Source: a virus. Taken from it: a stretch of 64,000 bases of DNA. The translations under genes and the position numbers were made by a program. Numbering within the stretch: position 1 is the stretch's first letter; each line of letters starts with the position of its first letter. The notes under the pieces are model-generated. The model had not been told where the DNA came from, ran no database searches, and worked only from the letters and a program-made list of their open reading frames with translations. Below are positions 31,376 through 40,423 of this stretch, one piece after another. Location of the stretch: IMG/VR virus record IMGVR_UViG_3300045988_054045, one strand, 5' to 3'.

Positions 31376-31564
31376 TCTAGCCATTCACGGGTTCGAATCC
31401 CGTGCGCGCCTCTAAATCCTTTGTTTATGGGTGAGATAGAAGCATAGGAATCAACATATTAGATGAGCAGTATTGCAAGTAAGCAGCAATCAATATGACT
31501 CTTATGTGTATGATTCTCACCCTCTCTAACATGGCGCGCTGGTGAAGTGGATTAACACGCTAGA
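31376..31564 (+). ncRNA. permuted tRNA-like module a
   Basis: TCTAG-CCATTC-ACGGG-TTCGAAT-CCCGT-GCGCGCC, a 122-nt hairpin insert, then GGCGCGC-TG-D arm-CTAGA. The anticodon-stem halves sit at the outer ends. Confidence 0.45.
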
Positions 31565-31647
31565 CTATAAAACAGCATTAGCATCAGGCTATTGAACGTT
31601 ATCTCACAAACTAGGGGCTATCATCGAGGAGTTTCGAGTTAGTCCTT

Positions 31648-31722
31648 AGGGGGTTAGCTTAATGGATAAAGCACAAGAACGTTTAATTCTTGGGAGTGGG
31701 GGTTCGATTCCCTCACCCTCTG
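31648..31722 (+). tRNA. tRNA-Lys(UUU)-like with G33
   Basis: Acceptor AGGGGGT/ACCCTCT. Anticodon stem AAGAA/TTCTT, loop CGTTTAA. T-loop TTCGATT. Confidence 0.6.
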
Positions 31723-31760
31723 CTTGGTTTGTGCCATATTCAATAATATTAACTAATAAT

Positions 31761-31786
31761 ACTACCTGTCTGTGAAGATGGGTAGT
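31761..31786 (+). other. GTGAAG-loop hairpin
   Basis: ACTACC-tgtctgtgaagat(g)-GGTAGT. Confidence 0.4.
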
Positions 31787-31792
31787 AAAAAT

Positions 31793-31885
31793 AAGGGAAT
31801 ACGCGAACGGTAGAGCGGCAATCGAGATGATTGTGATACACATTCTAGGTCAGTATTATTGTGGGTTCGAATCCCACTTCCCTTA
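31793..31885 (+). tRNA. aberrant tRNA-like gene (anticodon arm not resolvable)
   Basis: Good acceptor AAGGGAA/TTCCCTT, D arm and T arm GTGGG-TTCGAAT-CCCAC, but 43 nt lie between the D and T arms. Confidence 0.35.
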
Positions 31886-31916
31886 CAAATTCTTTGTAAA
31901 TTTGCATTTTATCCAT

Positions 31917-31942
31917 GTTATTGGTCTGTGAAGATAGATAAC
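31917..31942 (+). other. GTGAAG-loop hairpin
   Basis: GTTAT-tggtctgtgaagatag-ATAAC. Confidence 0.35.
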
Positions 31943-32114
31943 CGTTAGCAGAGTATTAGTAATTTCGACATTACGATGGGATATAGCAATATATTCGATT
32001 GTTACAAAATTTAACATTATTCACTTTGTAGAGTCTAAAGATTGCACTATCTTTGTACTCAGAAACGTTGAGAGAACGTGATTGTGTTTGTGTTTTATTT
32101 ATCCCATTGTTGAG

Positions 32115-32198
32115 GGGAGTGCGCCACAGTTGGAGAGGTGGGACAGACTGTAAATCTGTTGCCTTCGGGCTGAGTAGGTTCGAATCCTACCACTCCCA
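32115..32198 (+). tRNA. tRNA-Tyr(GUA), type II
   Basis: GGGAGTG/CACTCCC. Loop CTGTAAA. Long variable arm TGCCTTCGGGCTGA. Confidence 0.85.
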
Positions 32199-32237
32199 CA
32201 ACAATATCTGCTAAAGTCAAGTGCTTTGGTAAAGAGT

Positions 32238-32261
32238 ATGCTCGTCTGTGAAGATGGGCAT
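32238..32261 (+). other. GTGAAG-loop hairpin
   Basis: ATGCTC-gtctgtgaagat-GGGCAT. Confidence 0.35.
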
Positions 32262-32271
32262 ATTTCATCTT

Positions 32272-32343
32272 GCAGGATTGGTGAAATGGTTATCACATGA
32301 CACTTCCAATGTCAAATTGACAGTTCGATTCTGTTATCCTGCT
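32272..32343 (+). tRNA. tRNA-Gly(UCC)
   Basis: GCAGGAT/ATCCTGC. Loop CTTCCAA. Confidence 0.85.
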
Positions 32344-32344
32344 C

Positions 32345-32761
32345 ATGGAAATTAAACATTGTAACAAGTGTGGAAAGGATAAGCCTATATCTGAATTTGG
32401 TAAGAATAAATCAAAGAAAGATGGGCTTCAAACAATGTGTAAGGAGTGTGTTAGAGCCTATGGCAAATTACACTATGCTACGCATAAGGAAGATTACATT
32501 AATAGAAATAGGTCATATAGGGAGCATAACAGAGAATGGTTAAATTCAATCAAATCTCAACTAAAATGCTCTATATGCGGAGAAGATAGAATATGGTGTT
32601 TAGACTTCCATCACACTAATCCAAGTGAGAAAGAGGGAAGTGTATCTCACATGATTCAAGCTCCTAATAAATTAAAATCAGAACTCGAAAAGTGTATAGT
32701 TCTATGTGCTAATTGCCATAGAGATGTTCACTATCAAATGAATAAAGATTTGCAGATATAG
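32345..32761 (+). CDS. HNH homing endonuclease
   Basis: CNKCGKDKPISEF...CKEC N-terminus. DFHHTNP...CIVLCANCHRDVHY C-terminus. Wedged between two tRNA-Gly genes. Confidence 0.8.
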   Translation: MEIKHCNKCGKDKPISEFGKNKSKKDGLQTMCKECVRAYGKLHYATHKEDYINRNRSYREHNREWLNSIKSQLKCSICGEDRIWCLDFHHTNPSEKEGSVSHMIQAPNKLKSELEKCIVLCANCHRDVHYQMNKDLQI

Positions 32762-32823
32762 CACAACGGTTAGTGCATCGGCTTGCCATGCCGAGGATGT
32801 GAGTTCGATTCTCATTACCTGCT
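32752..32823 (+). tRNA. tRNA-Gly(GCC)
   Basis: GCAGATA/TACCTGC (one A-C mismatch). Loop TTGCCAT. The first 10 nt overlap the HNH stop. Confidence 0.75.
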
Positions 32824-33066
32824 CTTCGTTCCGTCTATCCACATCAGACGTTAAGGGTATGTGGCTGCTACGAGCTTGCAGGAACAGGCTTGCGCTGACT
32901 ACGTTATGAGTCCTAAGACTGGTGAGTGTGAATTGTCCAGTATGTCTTTGAGATTACTCTTTCGACATTACAGTAAAGAGAACAGAGCCTAGCAATAGGT
33001 GAATAAGAGAATGGATGTTATATTGTGCATGAACGATGTGAATGTATAAAGGAAATTCTCTTTTAT

Positions 33067-33139
33067 GGGCTGATAGTGATAATAGCGAGCACTTCTGCTT
33101 TGCACGCAGAGAGTCTGGGTTCGATTCCCAGTCGGTCCA
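33067..33139 (+). tRNA. tRNA-Ala(UGC)
   Basis: GGGCTGA/TCGGTCC with G3:U70. Loop TTTGCAC. Confidence 0.8.
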
Positions 33140-33162
33140 CAGAATAAGCTCAAAATTTGTAA

Positions 33163-38712: not shown

Positions 38713-38913
38713 ACTCAAGTACCCAATTCCGTACACCAAAAGGTTAAAATGGGGAAGTGGTTCTAAGTGCGGATAGCTAGTAGTTAGCCTTTTTACAATA
38801 AATTAGACCGAGGTTGTGGTTAGGTGAAATGCCTTAAGTAGGATGAGGGTACAACTCACTGGTGACGCGTCACTGGTCATAAATGGAAGTGGATGTACGT
38901 GTAGGTCTTATAT

Positions 38914-38986
38914 GGTGTTTATAGTTCAACGGTTAGAATAACTGATTGTGGTTCAGTAGACGTGGTTTCGACTACCACTAGACACC
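38914..38986 (+). tRNA. tRNA-His(GUG) with encoded G-1
   Basis: G-1 pairs with C73. GTGTTTA/TAGACAC. Loop TTGTGGT. Confidence 0.85.
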
Positions 38987-39081
38987 CTTTAGTAATGGGT
39001 TTTAAAATAAAATCTTCCTGTTTGTTTACCATTACTTAACGTGGTTTAGAAGGGTTACACGAGATAACAATCCTTCCTCTT

Positions 39082-39153
39082 GGGGCGGTAGCTCAATGGT
39101 AGAGCGCAGGTCTGAAGAGCCTGGCGTTGGAGGTTCGATTCCTCCTCGCCCCA
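39082..39153 (+). tRNA. tRNA-Phe(GAA)
   Basis: GGGGCGG/TCGCCCC. Loop CTGAAGA. Confidence 0.85.
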
Positions 39154-39168
39154 CGTCGATTAGTAGAT

Positions 39169-39293
39169 AAGGACTAACAGCAATTTATCTTTTGTAGCCA
39201 AAGCAGCGGGTCTGGGGTTCGAGTCCCCACATTAGATTCGTCTAATAGTAGCTCAGGCGGTAGAGCAGCAGCCTAATAACAAAGATAGTCCTT
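39169..39293 (+). ncRNA. permuted tRNA-like module e
   Basis: AAGGACT-AACAGCAA...TGGGG-TTCGAGT-CCCCA-(C)ATTAGA, a TTCG tetraloop, then TCTAAT-canonical D arm GCTC AGGCGGTA GAGC...CAAAGAT-AGTCCTT. Confidence 0.55.
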
Positions 39294-39332
39294 AGCTGTT
39301 TTACAGAATTACAGGGTAAAGAAATTCTGTAT

Positions 39333-39420
39333 GGAGAGTAAACCTTGATGGTGATAGGGGCTACCTGCTAAGTAGTTTCGTACATAAAAAGTGTATGTGG
39401 TTCGATTCCACTGCTCTCCG
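39333..39420 (+). tRNA. tRNA-Ser(GCU), type II
   Basis: GGAGAGT/GCTCTCC. Loop CTGCTAA. 19-nt variable arm. G73. Confidence 0.75.
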
Positions 39421-39463
39421 CGAATGTTTGGAACTTTTATTATAACTTAAAAAACTTATTGTT

Positions 39464-39757
39464 ATGAATGAGGTTCAAGTATTAAATCCGAAGACGTTGG
39501 AACAAACTCCATCTCTTCCTAATGTTGTCATAGCTGTAATTAATCAGCTTATAAAGAAGTATTGGAATGGTAGTTGCAGTACCATTCGTGTAAATGATAT
39601 TCTAGTATTTGTTGGTTTAGCCACTACTTATCCCATTGAAAGCATTATGAGTAGTAACTGGGTTGAGACTGCTAAGGCTTTATACCAAAGCTGTGGTTAT
39701 AAAGTCTCGGAAATAAGTAGGGGTGAGGACAAGTACTTAGAGTTTAAACTGAGTTAA
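39464..39757 (+). CDS. hypothetical protein (97 aa)
   Basis: ORF track. Confidence 0.55.
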   Translation: MNEVQVLNPKTLEQTPSLPNVVIAVINQLIKKYWNGSCSTIRVNDILVFVGLATTYPIESIMSSNWVETAKALYQSCGYKVSEISRGEDKYLEFKLS

Positions 39758-39758
39758 T

Positions 39759-39832
39759 GTTGGGTTAGACGAACTGGTCAAGTCACCACACTTTCAATGT
39801 GGAGATTAGGGGTTCGAGTCCCCTACCCAATA
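39759..39832 (+). tRNA. tRNA-Glu(UUC)
   Basis: GTTGGGT/ACCCAAT. Loop CTTTCAA. Confidence 0.8.
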
Positions 39833-39963
39833 CCTTGTAGTCCTCCTTAACCCTTAATAGGGTAGTTAGGCTACACTGTGAACGAACAGAGGAGAGAAGT
39901 TCACACGTTGGCTAGCAACGTAGTACACAATGGTAGGATAGGAACGGCTAGCACCTACCACAT

Positions 39964-40035
39964 AGCCCTATCTACTAATGGTCAGGTAATTGCCCTCTCA
40001 AGGCAAAAATACGGGTTCGAATCCCGTTGGGGTTA
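39964..40035 (+). tRNA. tRNA-Glu(CUC)
   Basis: AGCCCTA/TGGGGTT. Loop CTCTCAA. Confidence 0.75.
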
Positions 40036-40040
40036 CTATA

Positions 40041-40181
40041 ACTATCAAGTGTAAAATCTTACTACGATGCCCAAACGAGCCAAATGTGTTTTGGGAGAAA
40101 TGAAAAGAAGACAAAGGACAGGAAGGAATCCGAAAGGGATTTAAATGATATTAATAGGGCTAATCCTTCCATCTTGATAGT
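40041..40181 (+). ncRNA. stem-closed structured element (141 nt) upstream of a tRNA
   Basis: ACTATCAAG...CTTGATAGT terminal stem with nested GGAAGGAT..ATCCTTCC. Lies 8 nt before the tRNA at 40190. Confidence 0.4.
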
Positions 40182-40189
40182 TATTTAAC

Positions 40190-40258
40190 GAGTGTGAAGT
40201 GTTACGGTAGCATACCGCCCTGTCACGGCGGCGGAGGGGTTCGACTCCCACACATTCG
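40190..40258 (+). tRNA. tRNA-Asp(GUC)-like, short T stem
   Basis: GAGTGTG/CACATTC. Stem CCGCC/GGCGG, loop CTGTCAC. The T stem has only 3-4 bp. Confidence 0.5.
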
Positions 40259-40280
40259 GCTTGTATTTATCATTAGTACA

Positions 40281-40423
40281 AGAAGGCTTACAGCAAATTT
40301 TATCTCTAAGTATTCAATTGGTAAGTGAAAGACGCAGGGTTCGAATCCTTGCCTATACCGTCAAAGTCCTGTTGGGTATAGTCGTTTAGTGGTAAGATGT
40401 ATTAGAAAACAGGCGTGCCTTCT
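40281..40423 (+). ncRNA. permuted tRNA-like module f
   Basis: AGAAGGC-TTACAGCAAA...CAGGG-TTCGAAT-CCTTG-CTATACC, a 15-nt loop, then GGTATAG-D arm (AGTGGTAA)...GCCTTCT. Confidence 0.5.

Follow-up and report, generated by a model that had tools for sequence, protein, structure and literature searches.

The window analysed here, the 64,000-nucleotide stretch of IMG/VR virus record IMGVR_UViG_3300045988_054045, is part of a large phage-like genome, reported as that of a gut phage. It encodes a set of structured RNAs that share a terminal structure, here termed the handle, and differ in the sequence enclosed by it, here termed the cargo. The RNAs are embedded among 36 tRNA genes and lie on the same, plus strand as these genes (31648-50669; ARAGORN and Rfam). 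They are probably phage-encoded adaptor RNAs of a ribonucleoprotein of the Ro60/Y-RNA type served by many interchangeable adaptors, a reading we hold with moderate confidence. The evidence comprises the copy-specific pairing and covariation of the RNAs, the occurrence of the handle on the strand of a gene for a Ro60-like protein in related viral loci, and a copy of the handle that encloses the start codon of this gene in divergent lineages.

In the handle, a 5' strand AG(A/G)N4-6, preceded by A, pairs with a complementary 3' strand that ends in CU and is followed by G(U). The unpaired (U/A)ACAGCAA(A), with the shared loop motif CUUACAGCAA, follows the 5' strand, and the cargo lies between this loop and the 3' strand. 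Counted from the RNA ends, the stem comprises 7-9 bp, starts with AAG, ends with CUG(U) and carries the unpaired loop at its 5' side. The elements of the window are listed below.

31376..31564, plus strand: module a, permuted tRNA-like RNA without the handle; closing stem UCUAGC/GCUAGA
31563..31645, plus strand: x0, possible degenerate handle element, GACUA..ACAGCAUU..UAGUC; ends 2 nt before tRNA-Lys
34610..34676, plus strand: x1, 67 nt, short-hairpin cargo; stem AGGAAACA/UGUUUCCU; ends 7 nt before tRNA-Ile
34783..34854, plus strand: x2, 72 nt, short-hairpin cargo; stem AGAAGCC/GGCUUCU; ends 6 nt before tRNA-Val
36212..36279, plus strand: x3, 68 nt, short-hairpin cargo; stem AGAAGACU/AGUCUUCU; ends 7 nt before tRNA-Pro
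36384..36535, plus strand: module b, handle with tRNA-like cargo; T arm, acceptor CCUCCCC/GGGGAGG, encoded ACCA, UUGAAAUGUUGG
36791..36908, plus strand: module c, handle with YrlA-type permuted tRNA-like cargo; acceptor loop of 3-5 nt
37053..37263, plus strand: x4, 211 nt, cargo not tRNA-like; stem AGGGGACGU/AUGUCCCCU
38273..38414, plus strand: module d, handle with a V-like hairpin and permuted tRNA-like cargo; parsed copy, with covariation
39166..39299, plus strand: module e, handle with extended stem and permuted tRNA-like cargo, UUCG-capped acceptor; core 39168-39294, ends ...C-UGU
40281..40423, plus strand: module f, handle with permuted tRNA-like cargo; parsed copy
43079..43173, plus strand: x5, 95 nt, hairpin cargo; stem AGACGACU/GGUCGUCU; ends 7 nt before tRNA-Gln

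The window thus holds nine canonical handle copies, the variant-ended module e and the weak variant x0; the ten occurrences of a stem-preceded ACAGCAA all fall at 34.6-43.2 kb on the plus strand. The stem of x0 has 5 bp in the window and is absent from the minimum free energy fold, and its orthologue in locus L001 has a 7-bp stem, GACUAAU/GUUAGUC. Seven of the 11 elements end 2-7 nt ahead of the 5' end of a tRNA, and most begin 13-30 nt past one. Modules c, e and f are each followed, ahead of the next tRNA, by an additional small hairpin (36909-36947, 39295-39332 and 40424-40453, plus strand; for example CCCACAU...AUGUGGG and GCACACAU...AUGUGUGC). Another hairpin, UACUACAG...CUGUAGUA at 35849-35889 (plus strand), just upstream of tRNA-Asn, contains in its stem the ACAG of an ACAGCAA, and a further ACAGCAA is found at 35816; neither is a canonical handle element.

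The arrangement of the elements is not a product of chance. The pattern AG[AG]N4-N1-3-ACAGCA occurs at 293 unique sites in the window and the fetched loci, and 154 of these sites have a perfect Watson-Crick 7-bp partner 20-260 nt downstream, against only three with such a partner upstream. With partners swapped between sites, about 7.5 sites retain a match. The paired sites employ 64 distinct 7-mers, each accompanied by its own complement. When the window is scanned independently of the motif, for AAG, at least 7 bp and CTG, 40 candidates are returned; nine contain ACAGCAA, and all nine are located at 34.6-43.2 kb on the plus strand. The consensus of 357 unique elements (numbers are percentages) reads A79 U61 A94, then A G A78 ... 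C79 U63 U58 ACAGCA A94 A61 ... U79 C U, then G92. At the DNA level the flanks are accordingly A (94%) ahead of AG and G (92%), then U or A, past CU. A pseudoknot between ACAG and the 3' CUGU is possible, and its pairing would compete with the closing stem.

Covariation is judged on separate alignments for each orthologous element, since MAFFT misaligns the acceptor 5' strands of paralogues with differing cap lengths. Among orthologues of module c, 99.5% of the cells are paired, none of 500 shuffles is as good, and slid controls are paired in 36-49%. Double-sided changes affect nine of its 26 pairs (five of the seven acceptor pairs, two in the T stem and two in the closing stem). Compensatory changes are likewise found in the closing, T and acceptor stems of the orthologues of modules d and e, extending in module d to a 3-bp inner helix, and the acceptor of module b covaries. 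Module c has a minimum free energy z-score of -2.5, and x4 retains 76-99% identity among its orthologues. The covariation of the closing, T and acceptor stems, together with the copy-specific complementarity of the stems, indicates that the RNA structure is real.

The original prediction, made from the sequence alone, had described six circularly permuted, acceptor-closed tRNA-like modules in the region 31376-40423. All six are present at the positions given, module e having been delimited as 39169-39293, and each carries a T arm with a 5-bp stem, a TTCGANT loop and a 7-nt strand directly after it. A 7-nt complement of this strand follows 3-122 nt downstream in every module; the complementarity, which had been called perfect, is interrupted in module e by an A bulge or mismatch. 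The D-arm-like hairpin with its GG after the acceptor was also correctly described, except that module b has no canonical D stem and shows in its place the conserved UUGAAAUGUUGG followed by a variable hairpin. The UUCG cap at 39237-39240, the ACCA that module b encodes (36466-36469), the closing stems of five modules with their (T/A)ACAGCAA motif, and the single-base difference between the D arm of module d and that of tRNA-Gln (43181-43253) are all confirmed. The ACCA is replaced by ACUA in two relatives. The acceptor 5' strand of module b, GGGGAGG, equals the first seven bases of tRNA-Ala (36542-36613), which begins 7 nt downstream.

The catalogue of six was incomplete: it overlooked x1-x5, five further handle elements without tRNA-like cargo. 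Absence or decay in close relatives, together with a lack of compensatory changes, had been named among the grounds for abandoning the prediction; the relatives conserve the modules, with compensatory changes. The covariation among orthologues thus upholds the modules as structured, conserved RNAs whose tRNA-like domain is circularly permuted, closed by a loop and devoid of an anticodon arm. While the tRNA-like module is real, the unit under selection is a different one, namely the terminal stem with its ACAGCAA loop. Module a, which has no handle, is a conserved RNA in its own right. It consists of a T arm, an acceptor GCGCGCC/GGCGCGC into which a structured stretch of 122 nt is inserted, and a D arm of 3 bp, and it closes with its own terminal stem. 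Its five helices are 100% paired throughout seven orthologues, and double changes affect the helices of the closing stem, the T arm, the acceptor and the insert.

The cargo varies within the window and between lineages. The window contains three kinds: a short hairpin, a 211-nt domain, and the permuted acceptor-closed tRNA-like domain, which is present in five copies and represents a tRNA mimic of the YrlA type, with a T arm, a loop-closed acceptor and a D arm but no anticodon arm. In relatives the same handle encloses short hairpins, bare T arms, tRNA-like domains of normal order and large domains. Permuted cargo of the YrlA type is found in lineages whose Ro-like protein is 44-48% identical (loci L170, L187, L190, L168 and L195), a lone T arm in L004 and L005, and normal-order tRNA-like cargo in L007 (16183-16297 and 17126-17240) and L189 (12986-13099). 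L189 also has an element with a greatly extended acceptor arm (13104-13292). Many elements of the relatives enclose nothing but a short hairpin. At 17149-17222 of L007, ARAGORN calls a tRNA with an 8-nt anticodon loop and the anticodon uuaa. A T-loop motif is present in about one third of the elements. The short subclass measures 52-75 nt, and a third of the elements measure 110-270 nt. Tandem arrays of 4-9 elements, separated by linkers of 4-5 nt (junction ...CUG-AUA-AG...), adjoin the Ro-like gene in the absence of tRNAs. This layout implies a dedicated step of endonucleolytic processing or, alternatively, an array that is multivalent. They are located as follows.

L053, reverse complement, 6480-6960: tandem handle array
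L119, 520-1020: tandem handle array
L170, 7571-7995: tandem handle array
L014, 2746-3048: tandem handle array

The gene of the Ro-like protein lies upstream of the tRNA array in the window.

28674..30437, plus strand: Ro60-like protein gene, 587 aa; helical-repeat N-terminal part and von Willebrand factor A (vWA) domain

A TROVE-like protein had been proposed at this place, and fold comparison places it close to Ro60/TROVE. The five best PDB matches of its AlphaFold2 model (pLDDT, the model's confidence score, 73.7) in Foldseek are all Ro60 structures (1yvr, 2i91 and 1yvp; about 535 aligned columns, E 3e-7 to 2e-6), after which only vWA domains are matched. On this model the protein appears to have the architecture of Ro60/TROVE-vWA proteins, with helical repeats and a vWA domain bearing an adhesion site dependent on metal ions (MIDAS); its MIDAS-like motif DISGSM (DxSxS) is invariant. 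In Pfam it matches DUF7788 (E 5.9e-10) and, weakly, DUF2828, and it matches PHROG 850, annotated as RNA-binding protein, over its full length (E 8e-31). Matches in BFVD comprise DUF7788/DUF2828 proteins of a myovirus, Pithovirus, Marseillevirus, mimivirids and CroV, as well as a Gordonia phage protein annotated as Ro-like RNA binding protein. According to Pfam annotation and the BFVD matches, DUF2828 occurs in eukaryotes and viruses. Metagenomic homologues of the Ro-like protein number in the thousands and lie on contigs of about 180-190 kb from the human gut.

The handle and the Ro-like gene are linked in both directions of search. Among 80 viral IMG/VR loci fetched with the Ro-like protein alone (42-100% identity), 71 contain at least one element, and 324 elements lie on the strand of the gene against one on the opposite strand. 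A scan not anchored to the motif (AAG-stem-CTG) finds 240 exact copies of ACAGCAA on the strand of the gene and none on the other. Conversely, a pattern scan of IMG/VR with the handle sequence yields 120 loci, of which 53 contain bona fide elements, and many of these loci encode the Ro-like protein at 41-100% identity. Arrays of 4-9 elements abut the Ro-like gene in L014, L119 and the 245-kb contig L053 with no tRNA nearby, which argues against a role confined to tRNA processing. An element also lies just upstream of the Ro-like gene in a locus from a metagenome-assembled genome whose protein is only 32% identical.

In 16 divergent loci the Ro-like gene itself begins with AAG-AUG-UU (start AAGAUGUU), which places the start codon inside the 5' strand of a handle stem. 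The complement (R)NCAUCU-G follows 53-74 nt downstream in these 16 loci; L192 has the same start context and no complement. Codons 3-5 supply ACAGCAA in nine of the 16 (protein start MF[N/D]SK), and the remainder retain ...GCAA. The pattern is AAG-AUG-UUU-(A/G)AC-AGC-AAA ... ACAUCUG, and start regions of the L183/L186 type read AAGAUGUUUAACAGCAAA...ACAUCUG. The start context is seen in L172, L178-L181, L183, L186, L189 and L192, with variants in L168, L170, L171, L187, L190, L198, L200 and L204; loci with other start contexts show no such arrangement. By analogy with classical autogenous translational repressors, the start-codon copy is probably an autoregulatory mimic to which the Ro-like protein binds. 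Of the indirect evidence that this protein binds the handle, it would then be the strongest piece.

Under the proposed mechanism, the RNAs would be part of the transcript of the tRNA array and be set free as the tRNAs are processed; RNase P cutting of the downstream tRNA would leave a 3' tail of 2-7 nt. The handle would serve as the binding site of the co-encoded Ro60-like DUF2828/DUF7788 protein, and in some lineages the protein may repress its own translation through the handle copy that encloses its start codon. By analogy with the complex of Rsr, Y RNA and polynucleotide phosphorylase, the cargo domains might tether the ring protein to different partners or gate access to it, and tRNA-like cargo would recruit enzymes that recognize tRNA. 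The resulting particle could survey or turn over structured RNA, tRNAs for example, in the course of an infection in which the phage brings 36 tRNAs and a transfer-messenger RNA (tmRNA) of its own.

Several observations weigh against an adaptor role in a Ro60/Y-RNA-type particle. The TM-scores of the Ro60 fold matches are low (0.36-0.41) and come from a medium-confidence model, so that the comparison speaks for a shared two-domain architecture and is no proof of a closed ring. Searches of the PDB with the Ro-like protein by phmmer and hmmsearch return no Ro60, and the 587-aa protein does not match Pfam TROVE. The GNCGAAN0-1G motif (CGAA) of YrlA is missing from the phage elements, and (U/A)ACAGCAA(A) stands in its place across the 357 unique elements. 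Nine of the 80 protein-anchored loci contain no element, some of these loci being incomplete, and the bacterial homologues at 28-31% identity (L224-L226) are accompanied by neither handle elements nor a canonical YrlA. Within the window, the canonical handle elements lie between 4.2 kb (nearest) and 12.6 kb (farthest) from the Ro-like gene, and the clade of the window (protein start MEFSKKK) has no start-codon copy. Furthermore, the only protein shown to bind a dictyostelid Class I RNA directly, a type of RNA compared with the handle below, is the RRM protein Rnp1A, which is not Ro-like (PMC7919456). Module a, which is devoid of the handle, is 0.9 kb from the Ro-like gene, and in many relatives elements directly adjoin that gene.

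Among the alternatives, the RNAs might act independently of the Ro-like protein as decoys or sponges that soak up a host factor, for instance an RRM protein, enzymes that modify or process tRNAs, or a defence nuclease directed at tRNA. Linkage to the gene would then mirror only shared regulation within a module for the takeover of translation. This is unlikely, although the tRNA-like cargo retains the elbow and acceptor features read by tRNA enzymes, copies are numerous in each genome, and both a sponge role and direct Rnp1A binding have been proposed or shown for Class I RNAs. Decoys explain neither why the elements so strictly share the orientation of the Ro-like gene and abut it in tRNA-free contigs nor why a handle copy lies over the start codon, and cargo without an anticodon loop cannot mimic the substrates of anticodon nucleases. 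Less probable still is a function purely in cis, with the elements as punctuation or processing signals of a polycistronic tRNA precursor, positioning RNase P or protecting spacers and having no role as free RNAs. Every element of the window does lie on the tRNA strand, and the close spacing described above, with seven of 11 ending shortly ahead of a tRNA and most starting shortly past one, fits such signals. However, the arrays of 4-9 elements with 4-nt linkers beside the Ro-like gene have no tRNA nearby (L014, L053 and L119), modules c, e and f are separated from the next tRNA by a further hairpin spacer of 30-39 nt, and the conservation and covariation of the cargo far exceed the needs of a spacer.

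Two further readings concern the tRNA-like cargo itself. The modules could be permuted tRNA genes as in Cyanidioschyzon, an analogy drawn in the original prediction, in which circularization, or cutting and re-joining, at the closing stem and opening at the acceptor loop would give chargeable tRNAs. The order of halves, 3' before 5', agrees with this, as does the ACCA encoded past the acceptor strand of module b, given that only two of the 36 phage tRNAs have an encoded CCA; in addition, M. smegmatis YrlA is cleaved by RNase P and has CCA added (Chen et al. 2014, PMC4201824). We nevertheless consider the reading very improbable. The analogy is a misfit because the joined ends never rebuild an anticodon stem-loop and the same ends surround cargo without tRNA features. 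What separates the closing stem from the D or T arm is the conserved ACAGCAA loop together with conserved stretches that do not pair. Acceptor caps are as short as 3-4 nt (UUCG) and lack CCA, ACCA is ACUA in some relatives, and the tRNAs of the array already cover all 20 amino acids. The last reading, decaying tRNA fragments or a T arm and the D arm of the following tRNA placed side by side by chance, is refuted by the covariation data and retains almost no probability. An artefact of this kind is nonetheless present in the window: the YrlA model gives 25 bits at 35926-36038, within the tandem tRNA-Asn pair of 35890-36053 (3-nt spacer), a signal that combines the first tRNA's T arm with the second one's D arm. 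Chen et al. (2014, PMC4201824) caution against such false positives of YrlA searches. In the modules, the acceptor strands pair with each other and not with neighbouring tRNAs, the elements persist, with compensatory changes, in relatives whose Ro-like protein is about 57-60% identical, and they recur at 42-48%. An origin of the modules from tandemly duplicated tRNAs was also considered and is unsupported, since the acceptor stems of this tRNA-Asn pair, the only tandem pair, are unrelated.

The adaptor reading provides a candidate RNA ligand for DUF2828/DUF7788, a large family in phages, giant viruses and eukaryotes to which no function is assigned. The literature searched contained no earlier description of the phage handle RNA family. 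What appears to be new is a system of the Ro/Y type that could use a different recognition motif and protein subfamily, with at least 10 modular adaptors per genome. The mimic over the start codon, likely autoregulatory, points to translational control by the protein of its own synthesis, and the identity of the handle with amoebal Class I RNAs was unexpected. The finding also bears on the frequent presence of Ro-like genes in tRNA-rich phages, including carriers of tmRNA.

The surroundings of the Ro-like gene contain further RNA and protein genes.

25680-26230, plus strand: tmRNA gene; ARAGORN and Rfam, 70 bits
28265-28360, plus strand: RAGATH-34 RNA; Rfam, 71.5 bits against a threshold of 60.7
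30434..31225, plus strand: DUF7873 gene, 263 aa; Pfam DUF7873, E 1.4e-29

Within 1 kb past the tmRNA lie two segments resembling a T arm plus acceptor (26868-26900 and 27077-27110, plus strand). In their 3' strands, CCAAGUCCAC and UUAGUCCAC, these segments are similar to the tmRNA 3' end, and they may be remnants of a duplicated or two-piece tmRNA. The RAGATH-34 RNA occupies an intergenic region of about 400 nt directly upstream of the Ro-like gene, and literature searches found no paper on this motif. The DUF7873 gene is located directly 3' of the Ro-like gene in the closer relatives (L001-L006 and others), and its AlphaFold2 model (pLDDT 82) has no significant fold match in the PDB (best E 0.066). 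A stretch of 77 nt within it (31026-31102, plus strand) is 86% identical to unannotated DNA of Prevotella Lak megaphages. Apart from this stretch, megablast of 28-41 kb matched tRNAs only, and no close phage relative was found in GenBank. The tRNA array is interspersed with genes for an HNH endonuclease, a radical-SAM protein and an adenylosuccinate-synthetase-like protein (32345-32761, 34954-35775 and 41962-43068, plus strand). Scans for sigma-70 promoters and terminators show no enrichment over shuffles. In related contigs, other RNA matches lie within a few kb of the Ro-like gene: a group I intron in L053 (363-650, minus strand; 92 bits), a Hatchet ribozyme in L014 (1620-1705, plus strand; 68.6 bits) and a near-threshold twister-P1 match in L168 (14791-14856, plus strand; 59.5 bits against 67.2).

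Among known systems, the permuted tRNAs of Cyanidioschyzon merolae and the two-piece tmRNAs resemble the phage modules in that the T arm and acceptor 3' strand precede the acceptor 5' strand and D region, and in the intervening segment that caps the acceptor. Module b has weak matches to the permuted and beta tmRNA models at 36442-36493. The phage RNAs differ in that they rebuild neither an anticodon arm nor an mRNA-like part, have caps as small as 3-4 nt, and lack the alanine identity pair (G3-C70 in module b).

The closer parallel is with the bacterial Y RNAs of the YrlA type. YrlA has the order T arm, acceptor stem, D arm, occurs in phages as well, and bears a 5' GNCGAAN0-1G motif that has been proposed to contact Rsr (Chen et al. 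2014, PMC4201824). Its gene shares the strand of the Ro60 orthologue, at a distance of no more than about 4 kb. A phage-borne pair of Ro60 and Y-RNA-like RNA is also known, the Ro60-Yrl of Thermus phage phiLo (PMC12135203). The Rfam consensus of YrlA, with an outer stem, an inner stem, a T arm, a loop-closed acceptor and a D arm, bears out the likeness drawn in the original prediction. Since YrlA already displays the permuted tRNA-like architecture, the proposal made there of a new RNA class on the grounds of this architecture does not stand. The phage elements share with YrlA the paired ends beside a conserved unpaired motif, the tRNA mimic of T arm, loop-closed acceptor and D arm without an anticodon arm and with an optional V hairpin, and the location on the same strand as the gene of a protein that resembles the ring-type TROVE/vWA proteins by fold; the CCA gained by M. 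smegmatis YrlA recalls the ACCA encoded in module b. In Rfam searches with the YrlA model (RF02553; gathering threshold 69), modules c and e of the window score 32.8 and 26.5 bits, the latter in a full-length alignment, and modules b, d and f are not reported; relatives score 24.6-37.9 bits, usually over the tRNA-like core only. With scores of 24-38 bits against 69 and the GNCGAA motif missing, the phage elements are not members of YrlA by curated criteria, and from their sequences they appear to work like it. They differ further in their protein partner, a DUF2828/DUF7788 protein that is Ro60-like by fold only, in their number (at least 10 copies per phage genome, compared with 1-4), in a handle that also bears non-tRNA cargo and tRNA-like cargo of normal order, and in their placement within a tRNA array or in tandem arrays with 4-nt linkers.

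The handle itself finds its counterpart in the Class I RNAs of dictyostelid amoebae. The Rfam family of these RNAs (RF01414, Dicty_Class_I_RNA) is the only one matched by the short phage elements, at 20.5-37.3 bits against a gathering score of 41.5; x2 scores 20.5 bits, and x3 scores 28.4 bits across the full model (positions 1-56). Several phage elements exceed the covariance model score of at least 25 used for candidates by Kjellin et al. (2021, PMC7919456). The Rfam consensus has a 6-bp terminal stem, the unpaired CUUACAGCAA and a 3' CUG. Class I RNAs have been described as having a short stem that joins the ends and is kept by compensatory changes, and as reported unique to Dictyostelia (Kjellin et al. 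2021, PMC7919456). An 11-nt motif, CCUUACAGCAA, lies beside the 5' strand, with its final C, A and A among the invariant positions; the RNAs start with AAG, end with CUGU, have a variable interior and a length of about 60 nt (42-65), and are encoded by many clustered genes (PMC7919456). At the DNA level, the phage handle matches every hallmark of Class I RNAs in their mature form: the AAG start, the short covarying stem, the unpaired CUUACAGCAA directly past the 5' strand with its last CAA most conserved, the CUGU end with the C pairing with the 5' G, the variable interior, a short subclass close to 60 nt in length, and numerous genes in clusters. The phage consensus of the motif reads N C79 U63 U58 ACAGCA A94, and its last two A are the most conserved in the unanchored scan. 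The differences are that all phage scores remain below the gathering score, that the stems have 7-9 bp and not 6, that a third of the phage elements carry tRNA-like or large cargo, and that the phage elements have no DUSE promoter and would be co-transcribed, compared with individual genes in amoebae.

The phage handle thereby breaks the reported restriction of Class I RNAs to Dictyostelia. These RNAs are abundant and affect development, their mechanism has been open since 2004, and the present finding offers a hypothesis about their partner protein; four proteins have been pulled down with DdR-21 (a Class I RNA), one of which, DDB_G0281243, is uncharacterised. It is possible, though on balance doubtful, that the phage handle and the Class I RNAs constitute one RNA family, related by descent or by horizontal transfer among amoebae that feed on bacteria, the viruses of these amoebae, and phages, with a Ro-like DUF2828/DUF7788 protein as its dedicated partner. 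If so, Class I RNAs would be the amoebal counterpart of Y RNAs, and the DUF2828 proteins of eukaryotes, giant viruses and phages would be RNA-programmed ring proteins served by interchangeable sets of adaptor RNAs.

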